A stretch of 64,000 nucleotides of DNA from Mayamaea pseudoterrestris (Eukaryota): assembly GCA_027923505.1 (NCBI GenBank), contig BROI01000020.1, positions 62,001-126,000 on the forward strand, written 5' to 3'. Below, one piece after another: positions 13,507 through 36,076 of this stretch. The position numbers and the translations under genes are program-made. The first letter of the stretch is position 1. Each line of letters opens with the position of its first letter. The notes under the pieces were generated by a model that had not been told where the DNA came from, ran no database searches, and saw only the letters and a program-made list of their open reading frames with translations.

Positions 13507-16500
13507 CAGGTTGTTTCTTGGCTTTTCCTATTGCGCAGGTGACACACTTGTTCTTGGACGATCCATGTATCTCCCATCTGAAGTGCTTGGCAAAATTGCA
13601 AGCGTCATTTGAGGGCATTGATGTCCGTACAGTTTGTGCGCTTGCTTATAGGAGAGACGGCGTGTAGGAAGCAAATTGGCTGCAATCATGGCAAACTCGT
13701 TGCGAGGCGCTTGTACTAATGGCATTGGAATGACTCGTCTCAAGTACATGCAGTAAAGATGACCTCGCTTGGTAGGAATCAACAAGTCAAAGACGATGGA
13801 GTGTTGGTTTTCTTTCTCTAGCCAAATCTTTTGGTTGCCACTGTGAAAGTTTCCTTCCTTGCGCTAAACGTTGGATTGAAGGTGCAGTCGGGTGCATAAG
13901 CGATGTTGTTGAGGACTCCTTGGTAGAGAGGATTGCCAAACAAATTGCAAGCGTCCACTCGAAGCTTCGCCATGGTTTGAATGTTGGCAACTGTTCGATT
14001 TCCCATTGTAATGCCTTCATTCCGTATCTGTTGGGTGTCAAATAGGCCTTCTGGATGAGGTGTGCTGTCGACGGTTGCCGCAGTATTGCTGATGAAGATT
14101 TCGGGATGCTTTAGTATATCCAAGTTGGTTGGACACGTGATGGATTCATGGATAGTTGCAAGGGCAAAATCGTTGTTGTTTTGAAACGCGTAGGCATTGA
14201 CGCTTACGTTGTATCTCAATGCGCTGAAGGGATTAGGGCTTTTGTGTTGTAGTTGATTTGAATTGCAAGCTGGAGGTTGGTAACTGTTTGCGCGCTGTTT
14301 GGCTGCATAAAGTGCGTCTCTTGCCTCCCGTTCTGCGAGAAGGTCAATTACTTCCTGTCGCTCAGCTTCTCTTTCACTTTCTGGAAATTGGTCAAGGTAG
14401 TTGCAGGTTGTTAAGTCTTTGCTGAATTCTAAACCGACGTTGCGGAGGTCTTCTTCTAGCGTGCTGCGCGTCCGCAATGTTCCTTCGAGTGCTTGCCTTT
14501 TGACTTCCCTGGCAATTTCATGATCGACAACAACTTTCAAGCGTTCATCAAACAGCACTTCTTCATCTTCTTTGTTGATTTCTTTGAACCAGAAGATGAG
14601 ATCCTTGAGGAAGCGTCTTTGGCTGAAACGTTCTAGCATGCACAGTCTTGCGGCGCTTGCAGGATTTTTCTCGATGCCTTGCTTGTCCTTCTCTATTTGC
14701 TGGATGGTGGTTCTGTAGTGTGCTCGAGAGACGACATGCTCAGGCGCTTGATTGCGGTACTCCCAGGATTGAAGAAAGGCTTGATAGCTTTCGTAAGTGA
14801 AAGAGTCTGAATTGTAGTCGCTTTGGCTGCTCGGGTACTGATCTGAAATGTAGGTTGCATCGTCTGAATTGCTTTCTTCATCACCAGGATTGCTCATGAT
14901 GATTTCAACTCACTCTGTATCCCAGACTCGAAGACCAGTGTATTGATAGTAGCGGTCTCGCGTTGTGTCGATTGCTTCTCGATGGGTAAAGGCGTGTGGC
15001 ATGGCTATGTGCTAGAGGAAGAACTCCTGTAGATCTGCAAACATCACTTTTACGGCATCTAATAGCTCGTATAGTGGAGGATTGATGAACAAGACGCTTT
15101 GCAAGACATGGAATGGCAGTAGGTCACTCGAATTGGCTTGTGGCGGGATGTTGTTTGGAACTCTTGGAGCAAAGGATGGATACAAGTGCTCGACTTCTTT
15201 TAGCTTGTCTGCTGTAAGGAAGTCTTTGGGTAGCCAGTCTCCTCACCATTGCGCAAAGCTTGTCGTTACCAGCTCTTCTACACTTTCTTCTTCTTTCAAT
15301 TTGATTGGAGGACTTGTTGTTGGAGTTGAATCTTTGTCGGAGCTGCAAGTTGTGACGTTGTCGGTGCGCTCATGTGTGTCACATTTGTTGGCGTTTGTGG
15401 CTGTTGGTTCAAGGTTGGTGGGTTCAATTGTGTTGCTGCTTGTTGTGACGTTATTGGTACTTTGCGTAGCATTGTAGACGTGGTAGGAGTCGTTGAGGTT
15501 GTTTGCTTGCTCTTCAATTAATGTGTGCACTTGTTGCTCTGGTTTGCTTGGCTCGCCTTTTTTGTTGGACGGCAGACCCTTCCCATCTTTGTGCTTCTTT
15601 TGCTCAAGTGTTTCTATGTTTTGAATTAGAGTGCTGAAGAGTTTTTGTTCTTGTTCAGTTGGGGTCTTGCTGTTGACAAACTTGTCTTCAACGTTACTTT
15701 CTTCTTCATGCTTGTGCTTGGGTCACCGCATATGGATGCCCAACTGCGTCCATTAAGATTTGACGATGGAAGATTTGGCTTTGGCTTAGCTGACTCACTC
15801 GTTTTTGACGACTTTGTTAAAGGCACCAATTCAACGGCTTGCTTCTTGTTGGTAGTGCTTGACGTTGGTCTTGCACGTTTTGTTTGAGTTGTTGGTGGAG
15901 CTGGAGGTTAAATAAAGACAAAGGTGTCGGAGCTGCAGAAGTACGAGTAGGGAGTGCTGGATAAGTCTCATCAACTAATCTGGTGTGTATGAAAAAAAAG
16001 TTGCTTCTTGAGTTTGTAGAAGGATGACGGCGACTTGAAGAAGAACGCTGTGAAGAGGAACAATGCGATTGCTGAGTCAGCTGAAGGGCTTAATGTACCG
16101 CTGCAAATCCTTGTTCGAGTAGCAACGGCGCTTGACGAGGCACTTGATCTTGCATGATGGTTCGCGGGTGAGGCTCTTGACGATGATTTTGATGCTCAAG
16201 TTGACATGTCTGCTCTTGTTGATCTCGGCGACGGTAATCGTTGTCTCGTGGTTGATCTCTTGTGCGCTCGTTGTTGCGATTCTGGCAATAACGATGGTCT
16301 TCTCGTTGATCATCTTGCGGAAGACAATGATCTTATTGTCAATTTGAATTGCGAGGGCAGTCTCTTGGTCGTTCTAAACCTTGTTCTTGTTGCTCTCATG
16401 CTTCTTCATCTTCCAACGAGTGATCCATCCTCGAGGACGCCGGTGGGCATGTTCGACTTGTTCAAAGCTGTCGGCGCTTTGATGATACGGTTGATGACAA

Positions 16501-19115
16501 AGGTAGCATTTGAATGACAGTGGGTTTCGCGTGTTATTATAGTTGGTTTGCGGGTGTTCATTACAAATTGGTGGCGCTTGATGCTGAAGAGTGTTTTGTT
16601 GGCGTGAAGTTTCTTGTTGTGGCAGTTCTGGTTGTGCTGCATATAAAACAATTTTGTTGACTCCTTGTATTAAAGCTTCTTTGTCTTCTGCTGCGTAAAT
16701 TGTTTGGTAGGTGGTCGATACGACGCCTTCCATTTTGGTCTTTGTCAATGCGCCTTGTTTGGTCCATTGCTCTTGTGCTAAAGCAAGGCAGAATTGAGGC
16801 GGCAGCTTGTTCATGAGCATAGCCATCAGATCTTCTGCAAGAAGAGTTTGGTTGAACTTGATGGCTTGCGATTGCATGAGGTCGATGAGGTCTTGAGGGT
16901 TTGCTGTTGGTCATTCGAGCTTGAGGTTTTGGATGCTTCGTTGGTAAAGTGTTGGCGCCATGAACTTGTCTGGAGAGAACTTGATTCCAATGCGTTGATA
17001 ACTGTCCAAGCTTTGCCTCCAGGGTACTCAGTTGATTCTGCTCCAACAAGATGGTCCATCAACTCGGGGAATGGCAAAAGTGTGATGGAGAGCATTTGCA
17101 TGAGCGTTTCATTCTTCTTGCGTTCTGCTTATTTATTTCGAATGATTTGAACTTCGTCTGCTGTTGCATGAGCTGCAGGATCAGTAATAACTTCATCTTG
17201 TGTTGCTGGTAGGTGCTTGGGTCTACTGCCTTTGATAGGACATCAGCAGCCTGCAATTCTTGCATGATTCTTGAACTAGTTGAACCATGATGGAAAGGCT
17301 TTGATGGTGTTGGTTATCTTTGGGGTTTTGTGAAGCGCATTCATAGTGATGTCTTCTTGTTGGTCGGTCATGGTTGCGATTAGAATGAGTAGTAAAAGTT
17401 TTGGCTATTGGTCTGATGTTGGTAGCTAACATTGTTGTCGGAGAATGAAGATTGACGGTTTGGGGTAGCGAAACGTTGCTGACGTGGCCAATTGAGTTGC
17501 TGATGTGATGGAGTTTGAAAACGTGAATGAGCGTGGAACTGCTGAGCGTGTTGATCGCGACGATGGACACATTGTTGATTTGTCACTTGTTGATTTTGTT
17601 GAGCTTGTAAGTGCAGCTGTCGTTGATGTTGATTAAGAAGATGATTTAAACGAGTAACTTGAGCTTGAAGACTGTTTAAATTGCGTGTATGATGAGTTGT
17701 AGTGTTGCGAGTGTCGTTGATGCGAGGCTGGACTCAAAGAGTTGGATTGGAGGTTTGGTTTTGCTGTCGGGTTGGCGTGACAATTTGATTTGCTTGTTGC
17801 TGTCTTAAACGCTGTTGGTAAGGATGATTGCTTTCATTTTGTTGCGACGTTGATTGCGTCTTTGACTAACAGTGATTCGATTGCGTTGAGGATTGGTCGA
17901 AGCTTGTTGCGTTGCTGATGCGCGCTCTCGACTTGTCTGTCGCTGTCCGTATCATTGTTGAAAGAGTGCTTGACGACGATCTGCAATGCTTTGAACTGCT
18001 GCAATGTGATGTGCTTCTTGGTAAGCGCTTGTTGGTGCACTTGAAACGTTCTGAGAGCAAAGAGTTTGATGCAATGGTCTCGTGTCTTGGCGAAGCGCTT
18101 GACTAACTGGCGCTTGATTTGCTTCTTGTTGGCAAATCAAATTGTTCAATTGGTGAGCTTGCGTCGTGCTTGTTGGCAATGTTTTTAGTTGCTCGTTGGT
18201 TGGTGATGAGTTGTTGCTTGGTGAAGGTATGTGTGTTTGCGAACTGGTGATGCACACTGAACAAGCGCACATCGTCTTTGTGTTTATATCTGGTACTTCA
18301 CAAAGTCTTTGCAAGTCTTGACGTCTGTTTTCTTTGTCCTTTTGGAGCAGGTAACGAGTTTTCTTGAGATGTGGTGGACTCGGCAACCCACAATGTGACT
18401 GTAAAACACTTTGTTGTTGGCAAGGTCTTTATACTGATTGAAGCGCTGCTCACAAGCTTGTTCTGGGTCGATTAGCTTTGATGAAGGTGGCGGTCGAATG
18501 CCTCAAAAGATCCAGGCGAAACGCTTGTCTTCTTTGTCCCAAGTCCAAGGGGTTGGAGGAGAGACGCAAGGGTTGTAACGATACCAGCCGTATCGAACGT
18601 TCGGGTGGTTGTAGACTGCTTTCTCTTTGTCTGTGGCGGGTCGTCCAGTTAAATGCCAGTCTTTGGGTTGTTCGGTGAAAGTCGGTGAAGGCTGTTGCGC
18701 GTGTTGGACTCTGTTGGAGTGCGCTCTCGTTCTTGATTGCTTGCGATTTGATCGGTGGCGGTAAGTTGAATTACTGGGTGGCCTTCTGGAGTGACCAATT
18801 GGGAACTTGAAGGATTGAACTCATGTAAAGTAATGTTGATGAAGAGGTGGACAACTTGTAGAAGGCGTCGTGAATGATTAAAGACTTGGCGGCTTGTGTT
18901 GGAGCGGCAAAGGAAACAGTAAAGAAGGCGCGTGACTTGTGAAGTGAGAGGTGACTTGGAAAGAGTGCTCAGCAGACTAGGTAAATTAGTTCTGCTCAAC
19001 TGATGGAGACTTGAAATCTGCTCAATGATGTTGGCCTTGATCAAACGCTTGATCCGAATCGAGGTAAACTGAAAGGTAAAGGCAAAAGGGTCACTTGTAG
19101 ACTTGCTCTTGCTCA
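13507..19115 (-). mobile_element. Copia family C (different lineage): long upstream region, gag, long insert, protease, integrase N-terminus; truncated by B1
   Basis: gag ATG at ~17371 (MTDQQEDITM..YPGGKAWTVINAL..); zinc knuckle CYLCHQPYH at ~16510; degenerate protease FISNTAATV at ~14090; integrase zinc finger AHKLYGH..CVTCAIGKAKKQP at 13510-13650. Many stops and frameshifts. Confidence 0.8.
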
Positions 19116-29140: not shown

Positions 29141-29923
29141 TTACTTTCGCTTCTTTGGATCTCTCTTGCCAGTCACAAAGAGTGAGCGAACAAATACCGC
29201 AACAATGATGATAAGCGAGAATGCTCCGACAAGTAGCTTCCTGTCGAACGATTGCCATGTCACCGGCAGCCGCTCCGACATGTTTGACGGCTCGTCAGCT
29301 CCGCCTTGCACTTCCGCCGCATCATGACCCGGTTTGATACGCTCCGTTTGACACTCTTGAAAACTATCCAGCAACGGAAAGTGCTCGTCAATGTACGCGC
29401 GACCCGTGTGAATCTTGCCCTGGGCCGGTCCGTGTCCAAACGGTGGACCGTCACCGTATTCGTGATAAAACTTTTCAATGTGCTCAATGCCTTGCACCAC
29501 TCTTCCGACCGGCGTCTCCCAAAGCTCCGTTCCAAAATTTTCGTTCTCGCTGGTCAACGAGAAAAATAGTTGCGAGGTGCGCGAGTGAGGTCCCGAACCA
29601 GCGTAGCTAATTGTACCAACGTCAAAGGCGATCGGCGGGTCGAGCTGAGGGTCGTCGGGAATCGTTTGCGCGTTGCCAAGCTCCACGAGCTCCTCGTCGT
29701 TGCTGTAAGTTATTCCAAACTGCACCAAGAAATTGGGGACGGCTCGAAAAAAGTGCGAGTGATCAAAGAAGCCTCGCTCGAACAAATGCACTGCCCGATC
29801 GTAGCCATGAGGCGACCACTGGCGGTGAAATTCCAGCGTGATGGGACCTTTTGTCGTGCCGCACTTGACGATTGCGCGTTCGTCTTCCTCATCTCCTTCT
29901 TTGCTGTCTTCGCTGCTGCTCAT
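29141..29923 (-). CDS. Cyclophilin-type peptidyl-prolyl isomerase with a C-terminal TM helix
   Basis: TTKGPITLE, FFRAVPNFLVQFG, GPHSRTSQLF, PVGRVVQG; hydrophobic C-terminal helix then KKRK. The start at ATG 29923 is assumed. Confidence 0.88.
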   Translation of the reverse strand: MSSSEDSKEGDEEDERAIVKCGTTKGPITLEFHRQWSPHGYDRAVHLFERGFFDHSHFFRAVPNFLVQFGITYSNDEELVELGNAQTIPDDPQLDPPIAFDVGTISYAGSGPHSRTSQLFFSLTSENENFGTELWETPVGRVVQGIEHIEKFYHEYGDGPPFGHGPAQGKIHTGRAYIDEHFPLLDSFQECQTERIKPGHDAAEVQGGADEPSNMSERLPVTWQSFDRKLLVGAFSLIIIVAVFVRSLFVTGKRDPKKRK

Positions 29924-30311
29924 GGTGATGGTAGTAGCTCTCTCTCTTGATTTATAAAGTGGTTTCCATCTGATTGGAACCGTGAACCGTTGGTTGTGTC
30001 GCGCTGCAGATCGGATCTTCGTCACTCAACTGTCGCAGCGCAATTGGAAGAAAACCAGTGTGACTTTTACGACAGCTACCTTTGCTACACTCAACGGGAG
30101 GAACCACCGGTAGTGCCGCTTCGAGCTTCTTCCTAACAGCTAAACTCTATTCTCCAACACAAGAAATTGACGCACAGACATACAATCAGTATATTAAGCA
30201 GGCTAGCCTAAGCTGAAACGTAATGTGTTTCCCGGAGGTGGCATTGCCACCATCGGAACTGTTGCCCACCAACGTTCTGTAATTACCATCGCGTCGGCTG
30301 AATCGTCAACG

Positions 30312-33300
30312 TCAATCATCTTGGTCGTCTTCACTAGTTTCGTCGTCGTCGTCGTCATCGTCATCATCAACCAGACCTAATACTTCGCCGAAGCTCGTAA
30401 ACAGAGTACCAATGGGCACAGCATATAAACCAATACCTGCCACGCAGAGGAACATGCAAATCAATCGGCCTGGCCACGTAAAATCTACAAGGCCCCATTC
30501 TCCACCCAAGAATACCGCAGTGTAATAGAGTGAGTTAGGCATGCTCGTAAAAGCAGCTTGCTGGCACAATCCTGGATAAAACTCGTTACATTCCAAAGTA
30601 GACGAAAAATCGTAGCATCCGGGCTTCTTGTGGCTGCCGTACAAGGGAATCGAAGAGTCACATTCGCGCCAGTTCGGGTTATCTGCTTCAGCGATGAAGA
30701 ATAATGCGCCGCATCCAATCCATATGATGACGGCAAGCAGCGTTGTTGCCTTGAGAACGTCTTTGGAAGCTCTAAAAACATTATCAAGCTTGCTGAATGC
30801 TGTGAGAAAATCCTCCAGCTGTAATATTCGAAACACTCTGAAAATTCGAAAGATCCGGGCCCCGTCGCCATCTGCATCAAGCCAGCCAGTAACCGTAAGA
30901 GCCTGCTGGACGAACCAGGGCGCCGTCGAGAGAAAATCAACAATGCCAAAAAAGGTTGTTGCATAAACAAACGAGCTGTACAGAGCTTCACGATTCTTGG
31001 GTGCACAAAATAATCGCAATGCGTACTCTGTGGCAAAGACCATGACCGAGAAGAATTCGAAGCGATCAAATAGGTTACCCTTCTCGTTACCAACTGCTTC
31101 GTCAATTGCCGGAACACTTTCCAATAAAACTGCCAGGACATTCAATATAATGACTGAAAATATGAAGACGCGAGCAAAATAACCAGCAGTAGTCCACACA
31201 TGATGCCCATTTGGCATACGCGTTCCATTTAAAAAACGGTTTACCGTAAACTGCCACTGATCGACCCATTCGCCCCACTTTGACGCAGGCGGATTCACTC
31301 CCTCCAACGCCCGATATCGGTCTTCGTACCAATCGTCGCCAGCTCTTTGCTCTCCTGAACTGACCTGGCCGTCATGTTGCCCTTCGTGCTTGCTACGGAC
31401 GACTTCGACAAAGCCGCTCGCTATTAGACCGCTGGGAACTGAAACGACTCCTACCGCGGCAATGACCATGAAGAAGCAAACTAATCGCGCTGCCCATGAA
31501 TAGGTAATGATTGGGTAGTCTCCGGACAAATGAATTGCTAGTTTGTTGTGAAAAGATAAATGAGATAAACTGGCAAGAAGCGAATTGCACAATGCCTGCG
31601 TTAGCTTACCTGTGTAAACCATACTGTCAAAGTAATTTCTGAATCTATCGGTCATCGAGCAGTCAACTCCACAGCTGTATAACGGAACGGGGTCGATTTC
31701 ATTCGACGTATCATCGTGTTCACATAGAAACAACGCCGCGGAAAAGAGGATCCACAGAGTGACGGCAGCGTAGAATGCTACTTTTAAACTGTTGTACTTT
31801 AAGCGGACAACGTCGTCGATCAGCGAGATCGACGGAATATATTTGTCAAGTTTTAGAAGCCGCAAGATTCGAAGCATCCGTAAATATTCATCGTAATCGT
31901 TGACGAAGGATGCAGGAAGCGCATAAGAAATATAGAAGGGAACAATAGCCAAAAGGTCGATCACCGAGTAGAAGCTAATGATAAAGCGAAGGCGGGTCTT
32001 TAAAAAGCTTTCGCATGCAAAATCAGGGTCAGCGCCAGCGCCGATCAGTCGTAAAACGTATTCTGCCGTAAACACCGCTACAGAGATCCACTCGACTTGA
32101 TGAAACATGTTCTCGTATCCTTCGACTGTTTGCAAGGCGCCAACGGCAACTGTGGCAAAGATAAGGACATAGATGGTGATTTCAAAATATCTTGCTATCC
32201 GCGATCCGTTCCCATTCACAAAGTCAAAGGTAGCGCGTTCGATTCGGTGACCTGCCGGGGCGGCGCTCTCCTCAGACATGGGTGGGGGCAAATTTTCCGT
32301 ATTATCGTCGTTTTCCTCGGCGACGACATCTTGAAATCCAGCGCCAAGGACACCAATCGGTATGCCGAATATCCTTTATACGTTGAAGACGGAGTGAGTG
32401 GATAGCGCCAAGGTAAACGCTACAATGATTCGATCGAAAACTTACGCGGTCGCAAATAAACCGACGATTCCAGTGAGCACTTTTCCAGCCGCTGAGTACT
32501 GTGCCAGTGGAGATTCACCCGATAGATTCAAAAGTGTTACCCACATTGAATTCGGAATTGTGTTGTAAAACGAAGCCATCTCTTCATCTGGAGAATCACG
32601 TTCAGTGAAGTATAAGCAACTTGCAAAGAATATCCAAAACAGAATCGCAGTGAATGCCGTCACTGCCAGTATATCAACGTTGCGCTGGATAACGTCATCA
32701 AAGCTCAGAAACGCATGAGTGTAGCGCTCAAAACGCAGTATCCGTAGCAAGCGAAGACTCTTGACGAGATAGCCCCACTCGGAACCCTCTCCACTTAACG
32801 ACGGGAATATTCGACCCGTTAGCAGCACCTCAAACCAATATGGTGCAAAGCTGAGCAAATCCATGACAGCCAAAAAGCTTGTCGCATACAGAAACCTGCC
32901 TCCGGCTGGTGCTTCAATATACTTTGGGTCCTCGGCGACAGACCACACTCGCAGCGTGTACTCCGCTGTAAATATTGATACCGACAATAGCTCAATGATA
33001 TCCAAGACAAGACGCGCTCGCCACGGCAAGCTCCTCAAAGTATCCAGCATGAAGGAAATGGACGTGGTCACGACCAAAATGTTAACGCCATGATCCAACA
33101 GCAACGCTCCCCAGCCAGTCTGCGCGTGCAACACATTGTAGACGCGCCCCCGCAGCGTTTCGTTCGTTGCCTGGAAACCACACGTCGTGCGACCTTCCTC
33201 AACAATAGGTTGTTCAGCAGCGTCTTGGTCCTTGTGTCTTCTGGAAATCACAGTCTCAAAGCCGTTGCCGATAATGCCCGCAGGCAGCGCAAAAATAGCC

Positions 33301-34298
33301 ACGGCCACGGCGGCCGTCAACGTTCCAACTATTTTCCCATATGTCGAGTGCTGATTGATCAATGGGTATTCTCCAAAGAGATTCAACAAGGAGTAGTATG
33401 ACGCCATGGGGATGGACTCGTAAAGGTTGTAGCAGGGACGTTCATCATGTTCCGTCCCAGGACAGCCGGCCAAGGAGCAATTCACGTAGCCCCAACTGTC
33501 AATCTCGCACTCCGCATGATCCACGTCATCTCCACACGTCGGACAGTATATCATGTCGGGATTGCGTCGCTCGGCGAGGTAGTAGAGCGAGCTGACTGCC
33601 ATCCACGTGGTGATTCCCACAAAGAGGGCCGTGAAGAGTATGCTCTTTTGCGCGGCGTAAACATCGTCCATCATGGTCAAGGCTGTATCGTAGCGTCCTT
33701 CGACTCGCATCATGCGGAGCAGACGAAACATTCGCAGGAAGGATGACGCAGCAATATTGGAATTGCGGAGTAGAAAGGAGTCAATGTAGAAGGGTAGCGT
33801 CGAAACCAAGTCAATGACGGAGAAAAAGGTTGGAACGTAGCGAATGCGACCCCAGAATCCCTTATACAGTTCGGACTCTAGGTCGGCCGTATATAGTCGA
33901 AGCATGTACTCGACCGAAAATATGGCAACCGTCAGAATCTCCAATACTGACGTACTTCCAATGTTTAAAAATTCTAGTAGATTGTCTTGGTAGTTGCCAA
34001 ACCAAAGAGAGTCGCAAAGTGTTCCACAAAGACCGTGCTTTCGCGAGGCCCAATCGGCCTTGTTGTACTTTTGAACAAACAGACTGCCGAGTATAAAGGC
34101 CATGACATTGACAAAGATGAGAATCATGATGAAGCGTTCGTAGCATCGTCCAGCCGGCGTTTCGGCTTCGAGAAAGAGGTGAAGTCTTTGGCGACGATCA
34201 TGGAGCCATCGAGACGACGAATCGGATGCGGCAAGAGTGAGTGGTGCAGCCTCGATGCGAGGGACAGCAATCAAGGGAGTCGTCTCCGATGCCACCAT
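30312..34298 (-). CDS. Four-repeat (4x6TM) voltage-gated cation channel, ~1280 aa; exons 34298-32446, 32373-31610, 31537-30312
   Basis: Two 72-bp GT-AG introns (32374-32445, 31538-31609) join the 618-aa and 659-aa ORFs in frame (3843 nt). There are four RxxRxxR S4 helices and four pore-helix/S6 units. Confidence 0.9.
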
Positions 34299-34564
34299 TT
34301 TAGCAAGCGAAGCGCTCTATTGACATGCAATGCCAACCTTCAGACAGAAGATGTTAGACAAGGATATGGCATCAAAATCGGCTCGACTCGTTTCGTTGAA
34401 GCTGCTGAATGAGTACCGGAGCGAGGCTCAAACGTACCGAAACGACAGCAGTACCGCAACGACACCCATTGTTGCAATCACCATCACCATGATGATGGAC
34501 GGCCACAAACCGACGCCGCGATCCAAAAGTTCCAGCAAACAACAAGGCGTTTCTTACTGCTAAA

Positions 34565-36076
34565 ATGACGGTTCCATCGATAGTCAGTAGATTGGTTGCA
34601 CTATTCAGTCTTGCTACTACTATAAATGCTTCCATTATCAGTACCAGCGACGCTCGCCTGCCAATGAGCCTTTCGACCATCATTTCCGACTTGGAGGCGG
34701 AAGGATGCTCAGAAGTTTCCACCTTTTGCTTGATCACAAGCCACGGCGTGACCAAGGAACGACAAGAGAGATTGCTGGATGCTTTGGTTGGATCCAGTAT
34801 CAAGGAGCACGAGTCAGCGGGTGCAGCCGTCGTGAAAGCGGCTGGAACGTCGAGTGGGCTCGCCTTGGGACAGCCGGATGAGGGTGAGGTGGCGCTCACG
34901 GCGTGTGCCTGCGGCGGCAAGATTGTCTACTACGCCGATCCCATTGACCTTGCGCGTGGGGAGGGACTCTTTGATACATTGGCGCCGGCCATGGAGAAGC
35001 TCTTGGGGACCTCGTTGGAACAGTCGAAACTGATTGTGATTGTGAATGATGAGAGTCAGGTGGAGACTGTTAGGAGTCGATTGGAAAAGGCGGCGGAACC
35101 AATTATAAAGACCCTCATATCTGAACGACCGGTATCTAGCTTGCAGGAAGTGTTTGGGCAAGTCGTCTACGTCTCTCAGGAAAATGCGTCAGCCATGCTT
35201 TCGTCGGAACCTTCCACCAATCCGGCAGATGCCATGTCCAAGATTTCCGAGCTTGTCTCACTCGAAACAATGCTAGTTTCGTCGTCCGTCTCGTCATCAG
35301 TGCTTGGATCTGAAAATCTGGCGGCCGCCCGCATTCTTGGTCCAACGGCTCGCATCGTTCTGCAAAAAGCAATGGCGCAAGTGTCGCAAGCATGTCAAAA
35401 TGAGGACGGCTCGGTCAAGCTTGTATCTGCCTTTGGCGAGCTTTGCAATGCCGTTATACAAATGGCGCTGCGCGAGCTGGAGAACGAAGTCAAGGATTGT
35501 CCGTCCTTGCTGCAGTCCAAGGTTGGAAAACAAATTCACTCCAACCTTGAAGCGGAACTCTTTGCCGAATTGGGCGACTTGTTTGACACTCAGCTGGAGC
35601 TACTGCAAGCTGCTAGCACGGATGAATTCAAAAAGGCAGTTAGCAAGCTTTTAGTGTCGCCAAATCTTGGCAAGGACATGGATGCACTTGTTGAAAAGAC
35701 TGTTTCAAATTTTGCCAAGGCTGCTGGCAAGCTGCTACCAAAGGGATCGCATCAGTGGAGCATTCAACCAGCCAAGCAAACTCTCAAATCGCAGCTCAAG
35801 GAGTTTTGCACGAATCGATTAATCATGGCCCGCGCCGCTGGCCAGTACAAGCCGCTGCCCCGCAAGGGCGTCACTGTGGGCTTGCATTGGTTGCTTCCAA
35901 AGCCGTTTGGCAATGACTATCGACAGGAGCCATGGATGGTGCATGCGACGGACGGCATGGTTTACATTCCGCGCGACAAGATTACGGAAGTTTCGCCCGT
36001 GGAAGCTGGAAGTGGTAGCTGGTTGAACAAATTGGTTCCTGCGCCTGCGGCGAATGAAATGGTGTACATGCAATAG
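34565..36076 (+). CDS. Uncharacterised protein with signal peptide
   Basis: 503-aa ORF with a hydrophobic N-terminus, helical body and aromatic C-terminal motif GLHWLLPKPFGNDY. Confidence 0.8.
   Translation: MTVPSIVSRLVALFSLATTINASIISTSDARLPMSLSTIISDLEAEGCSEVSTFCLITSHGVTKERQERLLDALVGSSIKEHESAGAAVVKAAGTSSGLALGQPDEGEVALTACACGGKIVYYADPIDLARGEGLFDTLAPAMEKLLGTSLEQSKLIVIVNDESQVETVRSRLEKAAEPIIKTLISERPVSSLQEVFGQVVYVSQENASAMLSSEPSTNPADAMSKISELVSLETMLVSSSVSSSVLGSENLAAARILGPTARIVLQKAMAQVSQACQNEDGSVKLVSAFGELCNAVIQMALRELENEVKDCPSLLQSKVGKQIHSNLEAELFAELGDLFDTQLELLQAASTDEFKKAVSKLLVSPNLGKDMDALVEKTVSNFAKAAGKLLPKGSHQWSIQPAKQTLKSQLKEFCTNRLIMARAAGQYKPLPRKGVTVGLHWLLPKPFGNDYRQEPWMVHATDGMVYIPRDKITEVSPVEAGSGSWLNKLVPAPAANEMVYMQ

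Follow-up and report, generated by a model that had tools for sequence, protein, structure and literature searches.

A gene on the minus strand of Mayamaea pseudoterrestris contig BROI01000020.1 (34298..30312 in the window, i.e. the whole 64,000-nt stretch of DNA analysed), interrupted by two 72-nt GT..AG introns, was found to encode a product of 1280 aa with four six-transmembrane (6TM) repeats. In sequence and in fold, each repeat comes closest to voltage-gated K+ (Kv) channels (KCNQ, Kv4, Kv2 and Kv1) and prokaryotic Kv channels of the 6TM type, and not to Cav, Nav, TPC or BacNav channels. The product is probably a voltage-gated cation channel of the 4x6TM layout, a pseudo-tetramer formed by one chain, which is Ca2+-permeable and not K+-selective and whose four repeats descended from a subunit of the Kv type (KCNQ-like or prokaryotic-Kv-like). 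Channels with four voltage-gated domains are commonly assigned to a single lineage (Cav/Nav/NALCN), the outcome of two duplication rounds. If our interpretation is right, the present four-repeat family, widely distributed and combining Kv-type repeats with an acidic ring, would stand apart from that lineage, the architecture and the carboxylate-based filter would each have been reached more than once, and the family would provide a natural experiment on the conversion of a K+ pore into a cation/Ca2+ pore.

The coding sequence is divided between two minus-strand ORFs (32442..34316 and 30312..32375), with a 72-nt stretch between them at 32374–32445 which, read on the minus strand, has GT at its start and AG at its end; a second GT..AG stretch of 72 nt, in frame, lies at 31538–31609. 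Exon 1 (32446..34298, on the minus strand like all features below) runs from Met1 into codon 618, of which it holds the first two bases, and covers repeat I and most of repeat II. Exon 2 (31610..32373), given by the sequence and the public protein described below, carries the end of repeat II, the II–III linker and repeat III as far as the pore helix, and exon 3 (30312..31537, with the stop codon at 30312–30314) carries the rest of repeat III (filter and S6), the conserved III–IV linker, repeat IV and a poly-Asp tail. Intron 1 (32374..32445, phase 2) is located inside S6 of repeat II, which becomes whole again upon its removal (GLFATA joined to IFGIPIGVLGAGF), and intron 2 (31538..31609, phase 1) is located at the pore helix/filter boundary of repeat III, the pore of which is likewise restored (SMVYT-A-IHLSGDYP). 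The earlier note on this DNA had proposed that two 72-bp introns fuse the two ORFs, and this is borne out by the sequence, by a public protein and by contigs from three of four public runs. The protein (P0004, 'hypothetical protein MPSEU_000853300 [Mayamaea pseudoterrestris]', 1280 aa) is 100% identical over exon 1 and contains both junctions exactly. In contigs of runs X2, X3 and X4, which come from a single study and for which the kind of library is not on record, the stretches 31538–31609 and 32373–32444 (equally 32374–32445) are skipped exactly, both ending CT..AC on the plus strand, and run X1 gave an unspliced contig across intron 1. A reading of the locus as two separate genes was rejected because of this splicing and the full-length transcripts of orthologues. 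Within the 64-kb window, no ORFs other than these two matched the repeat HMMs. The gene is not hidden, as had been supposed, since the public record already carries the identical 1280-aa model. The expectation that automatic annotation would split the gene or call it a K+ channel failed in its first part, the public model being whole, but held in its second for orthologues, which bear names such as 'KQT member 1' (Seminavis) and 'Shal' (Symbiodinium).

The repeats were delimited as follows: 1) repeat I (33225..34163, residues 46–358), with a long, Cys-rich S5–P turret; 2) repeat II (32307..33125, residues 392–640), whose span takes in intron 1; 3) repeat III (31383..32213, residues 672–924), whose span takes in intron 2; and 4) repeat IV (30369..31193, residues 988–1262), which also has a turret with Cys. 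The chain ends 18 residues past S6 of repeat IV. Pfam identified four Ion_trans (PF00520) stretches (E 2.9e-70) and, at E ≤ 0.01, no other family in the chain, and the helices of an AF2 model fit a 4x6TM layout. The unit typical of the superfamily, an S1–S4 sensor followed by an S5–P–S6 pore, is thus present four times, and the earlier deduction of a chain of about 1280 aa with four 6TM repeats agrees with the length of the public protein, the Pfam stretches and the predicted helices. All four repeats have a complete S1–S4 voltage sensor, in which S2 carries F-T-x-E-Y-x-x-R, S3 a conserved Asp, and S4 a series of 4–5 Arg/Lys spaced by three residues; the S4–S5 linker is long and helical, and a Kv-style P-x-G hinge occurs in all four S6 segments. 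The S4 segments read LRMFRLLRMMR in repeat I (33705..33737, with Arg at every third position), KSLRLLRILR in repeat II (32733..32762), LRMLRILRLLK in repeat III (31851..31883) and RIFRIFRVFR in repeat IV (30828..30857).

The selectivity filters read NLFGEYPL in repeat I (33360..33383; Glu310 codon 33369–33371), NLSGESPL in repeat II (32505..32528; Glu595 codon 32514–32516), HLSGDYPI in repeat III (31509..31532; Asp879 codon 31518–31520) and FLGGEWGL in repeat IV (30489..30512; Glu1219 codon 30498–30500). The S4 and filter strings quoted in the earlier note were all found at the expected codons. TVGYG is absent from all four repeats, which have instead G-E-x-P, G-E-x-P, G-D-x-P and G-E-W-x (G-E-W-G in the Mayamaea protein). 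HMMER aligned the family sequence 'LnLs..GEsPL' with 'VTVTtiGYGDK' of KCNQ1 and 'MTtlGYGDM' of Kv4.2, placing the acid on the Tyr of GYG with a deletion of two residues; relative to these channels, the T-I/T-V pair is deleted and G-Y-G-D is changed to G-E/D-x-P. The Tyr is also aligned to the family acid in P0297, a four-repeat protein which has TTIGYG filters in all four repeats and is not a member of the family.

The E-E-D-E set, recognized earlier in this protein, is conserved among its relatives. In a 45-sequence family alignment, G309, E310, G594, E595, P597, G878, D879, P881, G1218 and W1220 are invariant, as is D1224, the outer Asp of repeat IV, and E1219 is at least 90% conserved, which makes a chance motif unlikely. 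Filters were then surveyed in the 131 relatives that are 850 aa or longer; in 110 of these, the residue could be read at every one of the four positions. E-E-D-E was found in 101 of the 110 and E-E-D-D in 7; the remaining two were P0182 (A-Q-N-A), which has lost all four acids, and the non-member P0297 (Y-Y-Y-Y).

CNG channels have the filter T-I-G-E-T-P, and the G-E-x-P filter of the present family appears closer to the CNG type than to the T-x-E-x-W type of Cav channels, a likeness that the earlier note had missed. The two would share G-E-x-P, a filter shorter than the K+ filter and an acid on the Tyr position of GYG, the site of the Ca2+-binding Glu ring in CNG channels. CNG channels differ in having a cyclic-nucleotide-binding domain, whereas the present chain gave no cNMP_binding match in Pfam, keeps full S4 charge ladders, has four repeats and lacks two more residues before the Gly. 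By analogy with CNG channels, non-selective cation flow with permeation and block by Ca2+ would be expected. In the proposed mechanism, the filter would be short and wide and would be narrowest where the four carboxylates lie, on the GYG Tyr position, and the channel would thus be unable to select K+. It would bind divalent cations and conduct Ca2+, probably together with monovalent cations, upon movement of the four voltage sensors, which in diatoms may provide a voltage-controlled path for Ca2+/cation entry. From this filter chemistry, in which a ring of four acids replaces the K+ filter, we infer that Ca2+ and other cations probably pass.

A four-carboxylate ring is not sufficient by itself for Ca2+ selectivity, as the EEEE ring of BacNav and the four Glu of EukCat are Na+-selective, and CNG channels with G-E-T-P filters are non-selective, passing Na+ and K+ and being blocked by Ca2+. 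It may therefore be argued that the protein is a monovalent-cation channel, either Na+-selective or non-selective, in which Ca2+ is mainly a blocker and which shapes the membrane potential rather than Ca2+ signals. Such a channel would have exactly the anatomy of the Ca2+-permeable channel that we favour, and the outer acid position of repeat I, which is Asn (LINQ) in the Mayamaea protein instead of the Asp (LIDQ) of most relatives, would be in keeping with it. We regard it as rather improbable, since the mixed but fixed E-E-D-E set and the invariant D1224 resemble high-field-strength Ca2+ sites, and even CNG channels carry a sizeable Ca2+ flux; the sequence as such decides for neither a monovalent nor a Ca2+-conducting channel.

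The Kv-like character of the repeats, first read from the DNA, was upheld by comparisons of both sequence and fold, in which KCNQ and Kv4 were the best matches. With phmmer, exon 1 gave 68 matches to PDB sequences at E ≤ 0.01, the best 60 of which were all Kv (KCNQ2/1, about 2e-17). The 45-sequence family profile gave 90 matches at E ≤ 1e-3, the best 60 of which were again all Kv, with E values from 7.6e-35 (KCNQ1) and 8.5e-35 (Kv4.2) to 5e-20 and with no Cav or Nav chain among these 60. Repeat IV alone, searched against the PDB at E ≤ 10, gave 48 matches, comprising 45 Kv, 2 spurious ones and a single Cav3.1 chain (E 9.2). Apart from fragments of the family itself, the proteins of one-repeat length that come nearest are prokaryotic 6TM Kv channels with TVGYGD. 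When a model of repeat I was compared with known folds, the 50 rows listed by Foldseek were all Kv, and the top 10 of a wide VIA-align search were Kv4, Kv2.1, KCNQ1, Kv1.2 and Shaker. The VIA-align scores of these (Z 12.5–14.1, at 21–24% identity) exceed those of Nav1.5 (10.9), NavEh and NavAb (10.7), Cav2.2 (10.4) and TPC1 (10.0), but the gap is modest (Kv 14.1 versus CatSper 12.5 and Nav 10.9), and Z values below about 13 may be generic for helical bundles. Structure-based identity was 21–25% to Kv and 10–14% to Nav, Cav and TPC1. On the matches listed, canonical Cav/Nav, TPC or BacNav membership was rejected.

With Kv/KCNQ and prokaryotic 6TM Kv channels, the repeats share the F-x-x-E of S2, the Asp of S3, the Arg ladder of S4 and a single pore helix, and the S6 sequence F-A-L-P-A-G-I-L-G-S-G-F of KCNQ1 resembles A-L-P-A-G-I-I-G-N-G-F here. 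Kv channels are, however, made of four separate subunits, whereas the four repeats here lie in one 1280-aa chain, and they have TVGYG instead of G-E/D-x-P with its two-residue deletion. Only PF00520 was identified by Pfam, so that neither the T1 domain of Kv nor the C-terminal calmodulin-binding helices of KCNQ are present; KCNQ/Kv7 C-terminal helices A–D, or a KCNQ_channel domain, through which calmodulin and PIP2 regulate those channels, were not found in Pfam at E ≤ 0.01.

The AF2 model, covering residues 56–1255 and based on an 84-row alignment, had a pLDDT of 91.2 and a pTM of 0.89, and the whole chain is confidently predicted to form a Nav/Cav-like pseudo-tetramer. When the whole model was searched with Foldseek, 49 of the 50 rows listed were named Nav or Cav four-domain chains (TM 0.54–0.61, 12–14% identity), and the remaining one was titled only 'structure of a channel'. 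DSSP assigned to all four repeats of the model one pore helix, a coil of 10–11 residues and S6, with no P2 helix in any repeat. Cav/Nav/NALCN channels share with the present chain the single-chain 4x6TM pseudo-tetramer and one acid per repeat (EEEE in Cav1/2, EEDD in Cav3). They differ in having a P1 helix–filter–P2 helix arrangement with T-x-E/D/K/A-x-W, whereas a single pore helix with G-E/D-x-P and other spacing is found here, and in their S6 segments, which are unlike the present ones with a P-x-G hinge. They gave no significant sequence match to the chain among the PDB matches listed, and no Cav/Nav Pfam domains were identified in the III–IV linker or termini.

Given the common layout, the superposition on Nav/Cav chains, the acid in each repeat and the asymmetric long Cys-containing turrets of some repeats, the family might be regarded as a branch that diverged early from the rest of the Cav/Nav/NALCN superfamily or has evolved slowly within it, the four-domain architecture having arisen only once and Kv-like ancestral features merely having been kept. 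This origin appears unlikely in view of the PDB matches listed, which for the profile and single repeats are only Kv, save the Cav3.1 match of repeat IV, of the differing pore motif, P2 helix and S6 hinge, and of the lower structure-based identity to Nav/Cav. Per-repeat trees compared the family repeats only with prokaryotic Kv channels and with a single GYG protein of four repeats. The four repeat positions form clades across taxa (UFBoot 98/94/96/100), and therefore the four-repeat order is older than the split of diatoms, dinoflagellates, green algae and the other groups. Monophyly of the four repeats with respect to prokaryotic Kv received moderate support (SH-aLRT 71, UFBoot 77, FastTree 0.60). 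In ML trees the partner of repeat I is repeat II (SH-aLRT 98, UFBoot 99) and not repeat III, a further difference from Cav/Nav/NALCN, but an AU test on duplication order kept all three pairings (p-AU 0.58, 0.24 and 0.41), so that the Cav-like pairing (I,III / II,IV) was not rejected (p-AU 0.235). A putative assembly independent of Cav/Nav is favoured by the similarity to Kv and by the pore anatomy, namely the absence of a P2 helix and the presence of the P-x-G hinge.

A K+ channel with a non-canonical filter, as suggested by the orthologue names KQT and Shal, would be in line with Kv channels being the closest relatives in sequence and fold, and has a precedent in TbIRK, a K+ channel reported to lack the signature sequence (PMC5429665). 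It is nevertheless very improbable, as none of the repeats has TVGYG, the T-V pair being deleted and Tyr changed to Glu/Asp, and as 108 of the 110 relatives keep an acid filter, alongside P0297, which is a genuine GYG protein of four repeats. A non-conducting voltage sensor or scaffold, which the loss of all acids in P0182 and the K-N reading of another relative (P0259) might suggest, is hardly credible, because even between very distant taxa there is little or no variation in the acids, the filter Gly, the Pro/Gly of the S6 hinge or the pore helix, which fits selection upon a working pore.

Precedents for joining K-channel-type subunits in one chain outside Cav/Nav are CNGK (tetraKCNG), each of whose repeats has a CNBD, and protist tandem channels of the Kv-like and CNBD kinds. 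These channels keep TVGY/FG filters, whereas no repeat of the present chain has GYG. The paper on the tandem Kv-like/CNBD protist channels reports none from diatoms. EukCatA and BacNav channels of diatoms differ from the present chain in being single-domain, and have a BacNav-type filter with a P2 helix. They are proposed routes of voltage-gated Na+/Ca2+ entry in pennate diatoms (PMC11085791, PMC6509283). Recent surveys give four-domain Cav as absent from pennate diatoms, with Seminavis robusta as the single exception, and ask what takes its place (PMC11085791). The family described here, which was found in both pennate and centric diatoms, is left uncounted in these surveys. Tentatively, and with less assurance than for the Ca2+-permeable Kv-derived channel itself, one may propose i) that the family forms a third, ancient lineage of voltage-gated channels with four repeats in a single chain, of Kv-type origin independent of Cav/Nav/NALCN and of CNGK, which arose before the major eukaryotic groups diverged, ii) that its E-E-D-E filter is a convergent, Ca2+-conducting one on a K+-channel pore scaffold, and iii) that it is a main route of voltage-gated Ca2+ entry beside EukCatA in pennate diatoms. 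The channel is directly accessible to expression with patch clamp and, in a model diatom, to knock-out with Ca2+ imaging.

In full-text searches of the literature, no account of a Kv-like four-repeat family with E-E-D-E filters was met, and no searchable paper contains XP_013759166, KNC47682, A0A0L0D5N5 or MPSEU_000853300. PMC12412391 shows unlabelled subclusters (SAR, Cryptista, Chloroplastida) whose channels have 18 or more predicted TM helices and which could include the present family; no match to it was obtained in the 12 of 33 supplementary files that were searched. Named relatives were identified in diatoms, xanthophytes, labyrinthulids, dinoflagellates, Perkinsus, cryptophytes, Mesostigma, Thecamonas and Creolimax. 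The family is pan-eukaryotic, widespread among protists and no peculiarity of diatoms, a point overlooked in the earlier note. A search of the ESM Atlas gave no clusters more specific than 'Ion transport', with leads to haptophyte and diatom taxa.

The channel gene lies on the minus strand (34298..30312), where an ORF scan gave two long ORFs, 32442..34316 and 30312..32375. The earlier note had joined them into a four-repeat chain by removing two 72-nt GT..AG introns, intron 1 (32374-32445) between the ORFs and intron 2 (31538-31609) in frame. Their removal fuses GLFATA to IFGIPIGVLGAGF, completing an S6 helix that resembles the S6 of repeat I, and SMVYT-A to IHLSGDYP, completing a pore loop. 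This gene model was confirmed: P0004, the Mayamaea protein itself (1280 aa; 'hypothetical protein MPSEU_000853300 [Mayamaea pseudoterrestris]'), is exactly the spliced product, and both introns are skipped base-exactly in contigs of three of the four overlapping public sequencing runs (X2-X4, from one study, library kind not on record); X1 has an unspliced contig across intron 1. Start and stop were located afresh in the window sequence, as was each of the four S4 and four filter strings, and all the strings given in the earlier note were recovered. MMETSP transcriptome orthologues (e.g. P0006, P0013 and P0033) have complete ORFs of about 1250-1290 aa, so that in other diatoms a single transcript covers all four repeats. 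The gene is real, and its existing annotation is that of a hypothetical protein; the expectation that annotation would split it failed with the unsplit P0004 record, whereas the expected K+-channel names do occur in the family ('gated channel subfamily KQT member 1' and 'Shal'). Over window positions 30000-34600 the run contigs show many differences, mostly transitions; identity classes of 95-99% are common, and a 3-base insertion variant occurs near 32794-32796. Alleles or a closely related strain would fit this pattern.

Pfam assigned four Ion_trans stretches (E 2.9e-70) to the protein and no other family at E<=0.01; T1, KCNQ C-terminal, cNMP-binding, IQ/GPHH and Na_trans domains are all absent. 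Each S4 carries four or five Arg/Lys at three-residue spacing, and the family consensus has F-T-x-E-Y-x-x-R in all S2, Asp in all S3 and P-x-G in all S6; we take the S2 motif and the S3 Asp to be the gating-charge transfer centre, and P-x-G to be the Kv gating hinge. The turrets of repeats I and IV are long and contain Cys, that of repeat III less markedly so; the family conserves the III-IV linker, and the protein ends in a poly-Asp tail. Precomputed assignments add EF-hand families (PF13405, PF13499, PF13833, PF13202 and PF00036) in the relative P0084, a hint of Ca2+ regulation in some lineages, and ubiquitin (PF00240) and PF11891 in the relative P0087.

The Kv-like nature of the repeats, also proposed in the earlier note, was borne out by searches against the PDB. 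Exon 1 (32446..34298, repeat I and most of repeat II) gave 68 phmmer matches at E<=0.01, the best 60 all Kv, with KCNQ2 and KCNQ1 on top (about 2e-17). With a profile built from 45 family members there were 90 matches at E<=1e-3, and again the best 60 were all Kv (KCNQ1, 7.6e-35; Kv4.2, 8.5e-35; then Kv1.2-2.1, KCNQ2-5, Kv2.1, Kv1.3 and Shaker, down to 5e-20). The complete list of 48 matches for repeat IV alone at E<=10 comprised 45 Kv, two spurious matches and one Cav3.1 chain (E 9.2). Among 2521 candidate proteins of 176-562 aa, repeat I matched 77, mostly fragments of the same family; the remainder were prokaryotic 6TM channels (PF00520+PF07885) named 'voltage-gated potassium channel' or 'ion transporter', and the four prokaryotic matches read, of seven proteins fetched, have TVGYGD filters.

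The predicted fold of residues 56-1255 (84-row alignment; pLDDT 91.2, pTM 0.89) shows a Kv-style pore scaffold: by DSSP, each repeat has a pore helix of 12 residues, a coil of 10-11 residues that includes the filter, and then S6, and a second pore helix (P2) is absent from all four repeats of the model. Of the 50 Foldseek rows listed for the whole model, 49 were four-domain chains named as Nav or Cav (TM 0.54-0.61, 12-14% identity), the other being titled only 'structure of a channel'; the modelled chain therefore packs as a comparable pseudo-tetramer. When repeat I was modelled by itself (pLDDT 84.6), all 50 Foldseek matches listed were Kv chains. In a scan of 48,161 chains that did not rely on Foldseek, the top ten for repeat I were Kv4.2/4.3, Kv2.1, KCNQ1, Kv1.2 and Shaker (Z 12.5-14.1, 21-24% identity), followed by CatSper (Z 12.5), Nav1.5 (10.9), NavAb and NavEh (10.7), Cav2.2 (10.4) and TPC1 (10.0) at 10-14% identity; since Z under about 13 may be generic for helical bundles, this ranking is supporting rather than decisive.

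HMMER placed the family 'LnLs..GEsPL' opposite KCNQ1 'VTVTtiGYGDK' and Kv4.2 'MTtlGYGDM', so that, relative to the K+ filter, the T-I/T-V pair is absent, the first Gly is retained, Tyr is replaced by Glu/Asp and the following Asp by Pro. P0297, a Kv-like protein of 1493 aa from an ENA contig whose four repeats all have TTIGYG, aligned in identical register. Alignment of 45 members showed no variation at G309, E310, G594, E595, P597, G878, D879, P881, G1218 or W1220, and conservation of E1219 at 90% or above. The repeat IV counterpart of residue 315, D1224, is also invariant; residue 315 itself (33354-33356), five after the repeat I filter Glu, is Asn (LINQ) where most relatives have Asp (LIDQ).

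An exhaustive exon 1 phmmer search of 1.84 billion cluster representatives found 3462 proteins at E<=1e-3, 947 at <=1e-10 and 150 at <=1e-30. The last, with 86 long matches and leaving out the weak Phytophthora matches P0090-P0092, formed a census set with 131 proteins of at least 850 aa, 21 of them partial; in the 110 with four readable filter positions the acidic set is near-universal (E-E-D-E in 101, E-E-D-D in 7), the others being A-Q-N-A (P0182) and Y-Y-Y-Y (P0297). P0182 and P0259, the latter with K-N in its two readable repeats, are family members without the acidic ring. The family is conserved and widely distributed, with named members in diatoms (Mayamaea, Nitzschia, Epithemia, Seminavis, Grammatophora, Cylindrotheca, Pseudo-nitzschia, Entomoneis and Cyclotella) and in Tribonema, Aplanochytrium, Symbiodinium, Gymnodinium, Perkinsus, Teleaulax, Mesostigma, Thecamonas and Creolimax.

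One gene thus encodes four Kv-type repeats with intact voltage-sensor motifs and the K+ signature lost. The four carboxylates would form the narrow site of a short filter, and on this basis the protein is probably a voltage-gated cation channel lacking K+ selectivity and able to bind and conduct Ca2+. Cav channels have a T-x-E-x-W filter, whereas that of the family is of the G-E/D-x-P type (G-E-W-G in repeat IV), probably closer to the CNG motif (T-I-G-E-T-P), in which the acid position presumably corresponds to the Glu ring. CNG channels conduct cations non-selectively, are permeable to Ca2+ and are also blocked by it. The main functional rival, a monovalent or non-selective channel with Ca2+ mostly a blocker, seems rather unlikely.

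In single-repeat trees with prokaryotic Kv channels and P0297 as outgroups, each repeat position formed its own clade across taxa (clades I-IV: SH-aLRT 33/98.8/98/99.9 with IQ-TREE fast and 61 sequences; UFBoot 98/94/96/100 with 40 sequences), and the four-repeat order is therefore older than the split between the lineages sampled. Repeats I and II were sisters (SH-aLRT 98, UFBoot 99), and monophyly of all family repeats against these outgroups was only moderately supported (SH-aLRT 71, UFBoot 77, FastTree 0.60). The P0297 repeats grouped together (100) amid the prokaryotic Kv channels, and so in this protein a K+ channel subunit was concatenated separately and more recently. Four-domain ancestry common with Cav/Nav, the main evolutionary rival, is improbable; the maximum-likelihood topology is unlike the I/III-II/IV pairing of Cav/Nav repeats, a difference not established, as the AU test rejected none of three pairings (p-AU 0.58, 0.24 and 0.41).

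As far as the freely accessible literature searched shows, this family within the voltage-gated channel superfamily is uncharacterised, and no description of it was found. The available parts of PMC5824947, PMC6259924 and PMC12749960 do not mention such a family, and a paper on tandem Kv-like channels of protists states that diatoms yielded none. The accessible text of PMC11085791 states that pennate diatoms, except Seminavis robusta, lack four-domain Cav channels and may possess an alternative. PMC12412391, in its available part, mentions subclusters without labels whose channels, from SAR, Cryptista and Chloroplastida, have 18 or more TM helices; the family might be among them.

Next downstream (29144-30025, minus strand) lies an ORF for a peptidyl-prolyl isomerase of the cyclophilin type (PF00160, E 9.9e-14), whose C-terminal tail is hydrophobic. 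Upstream, a divergent 526-aa ORF (34496-36073, plus strand) has a sub-threshold Sey1_3HB match (16.6 bits, cut-off 24) and no other. Positions 14001-18000 have a strong strand composition bias compared with the rest of the window (GC skew 0.17-0.27, AT skew about -0.27).
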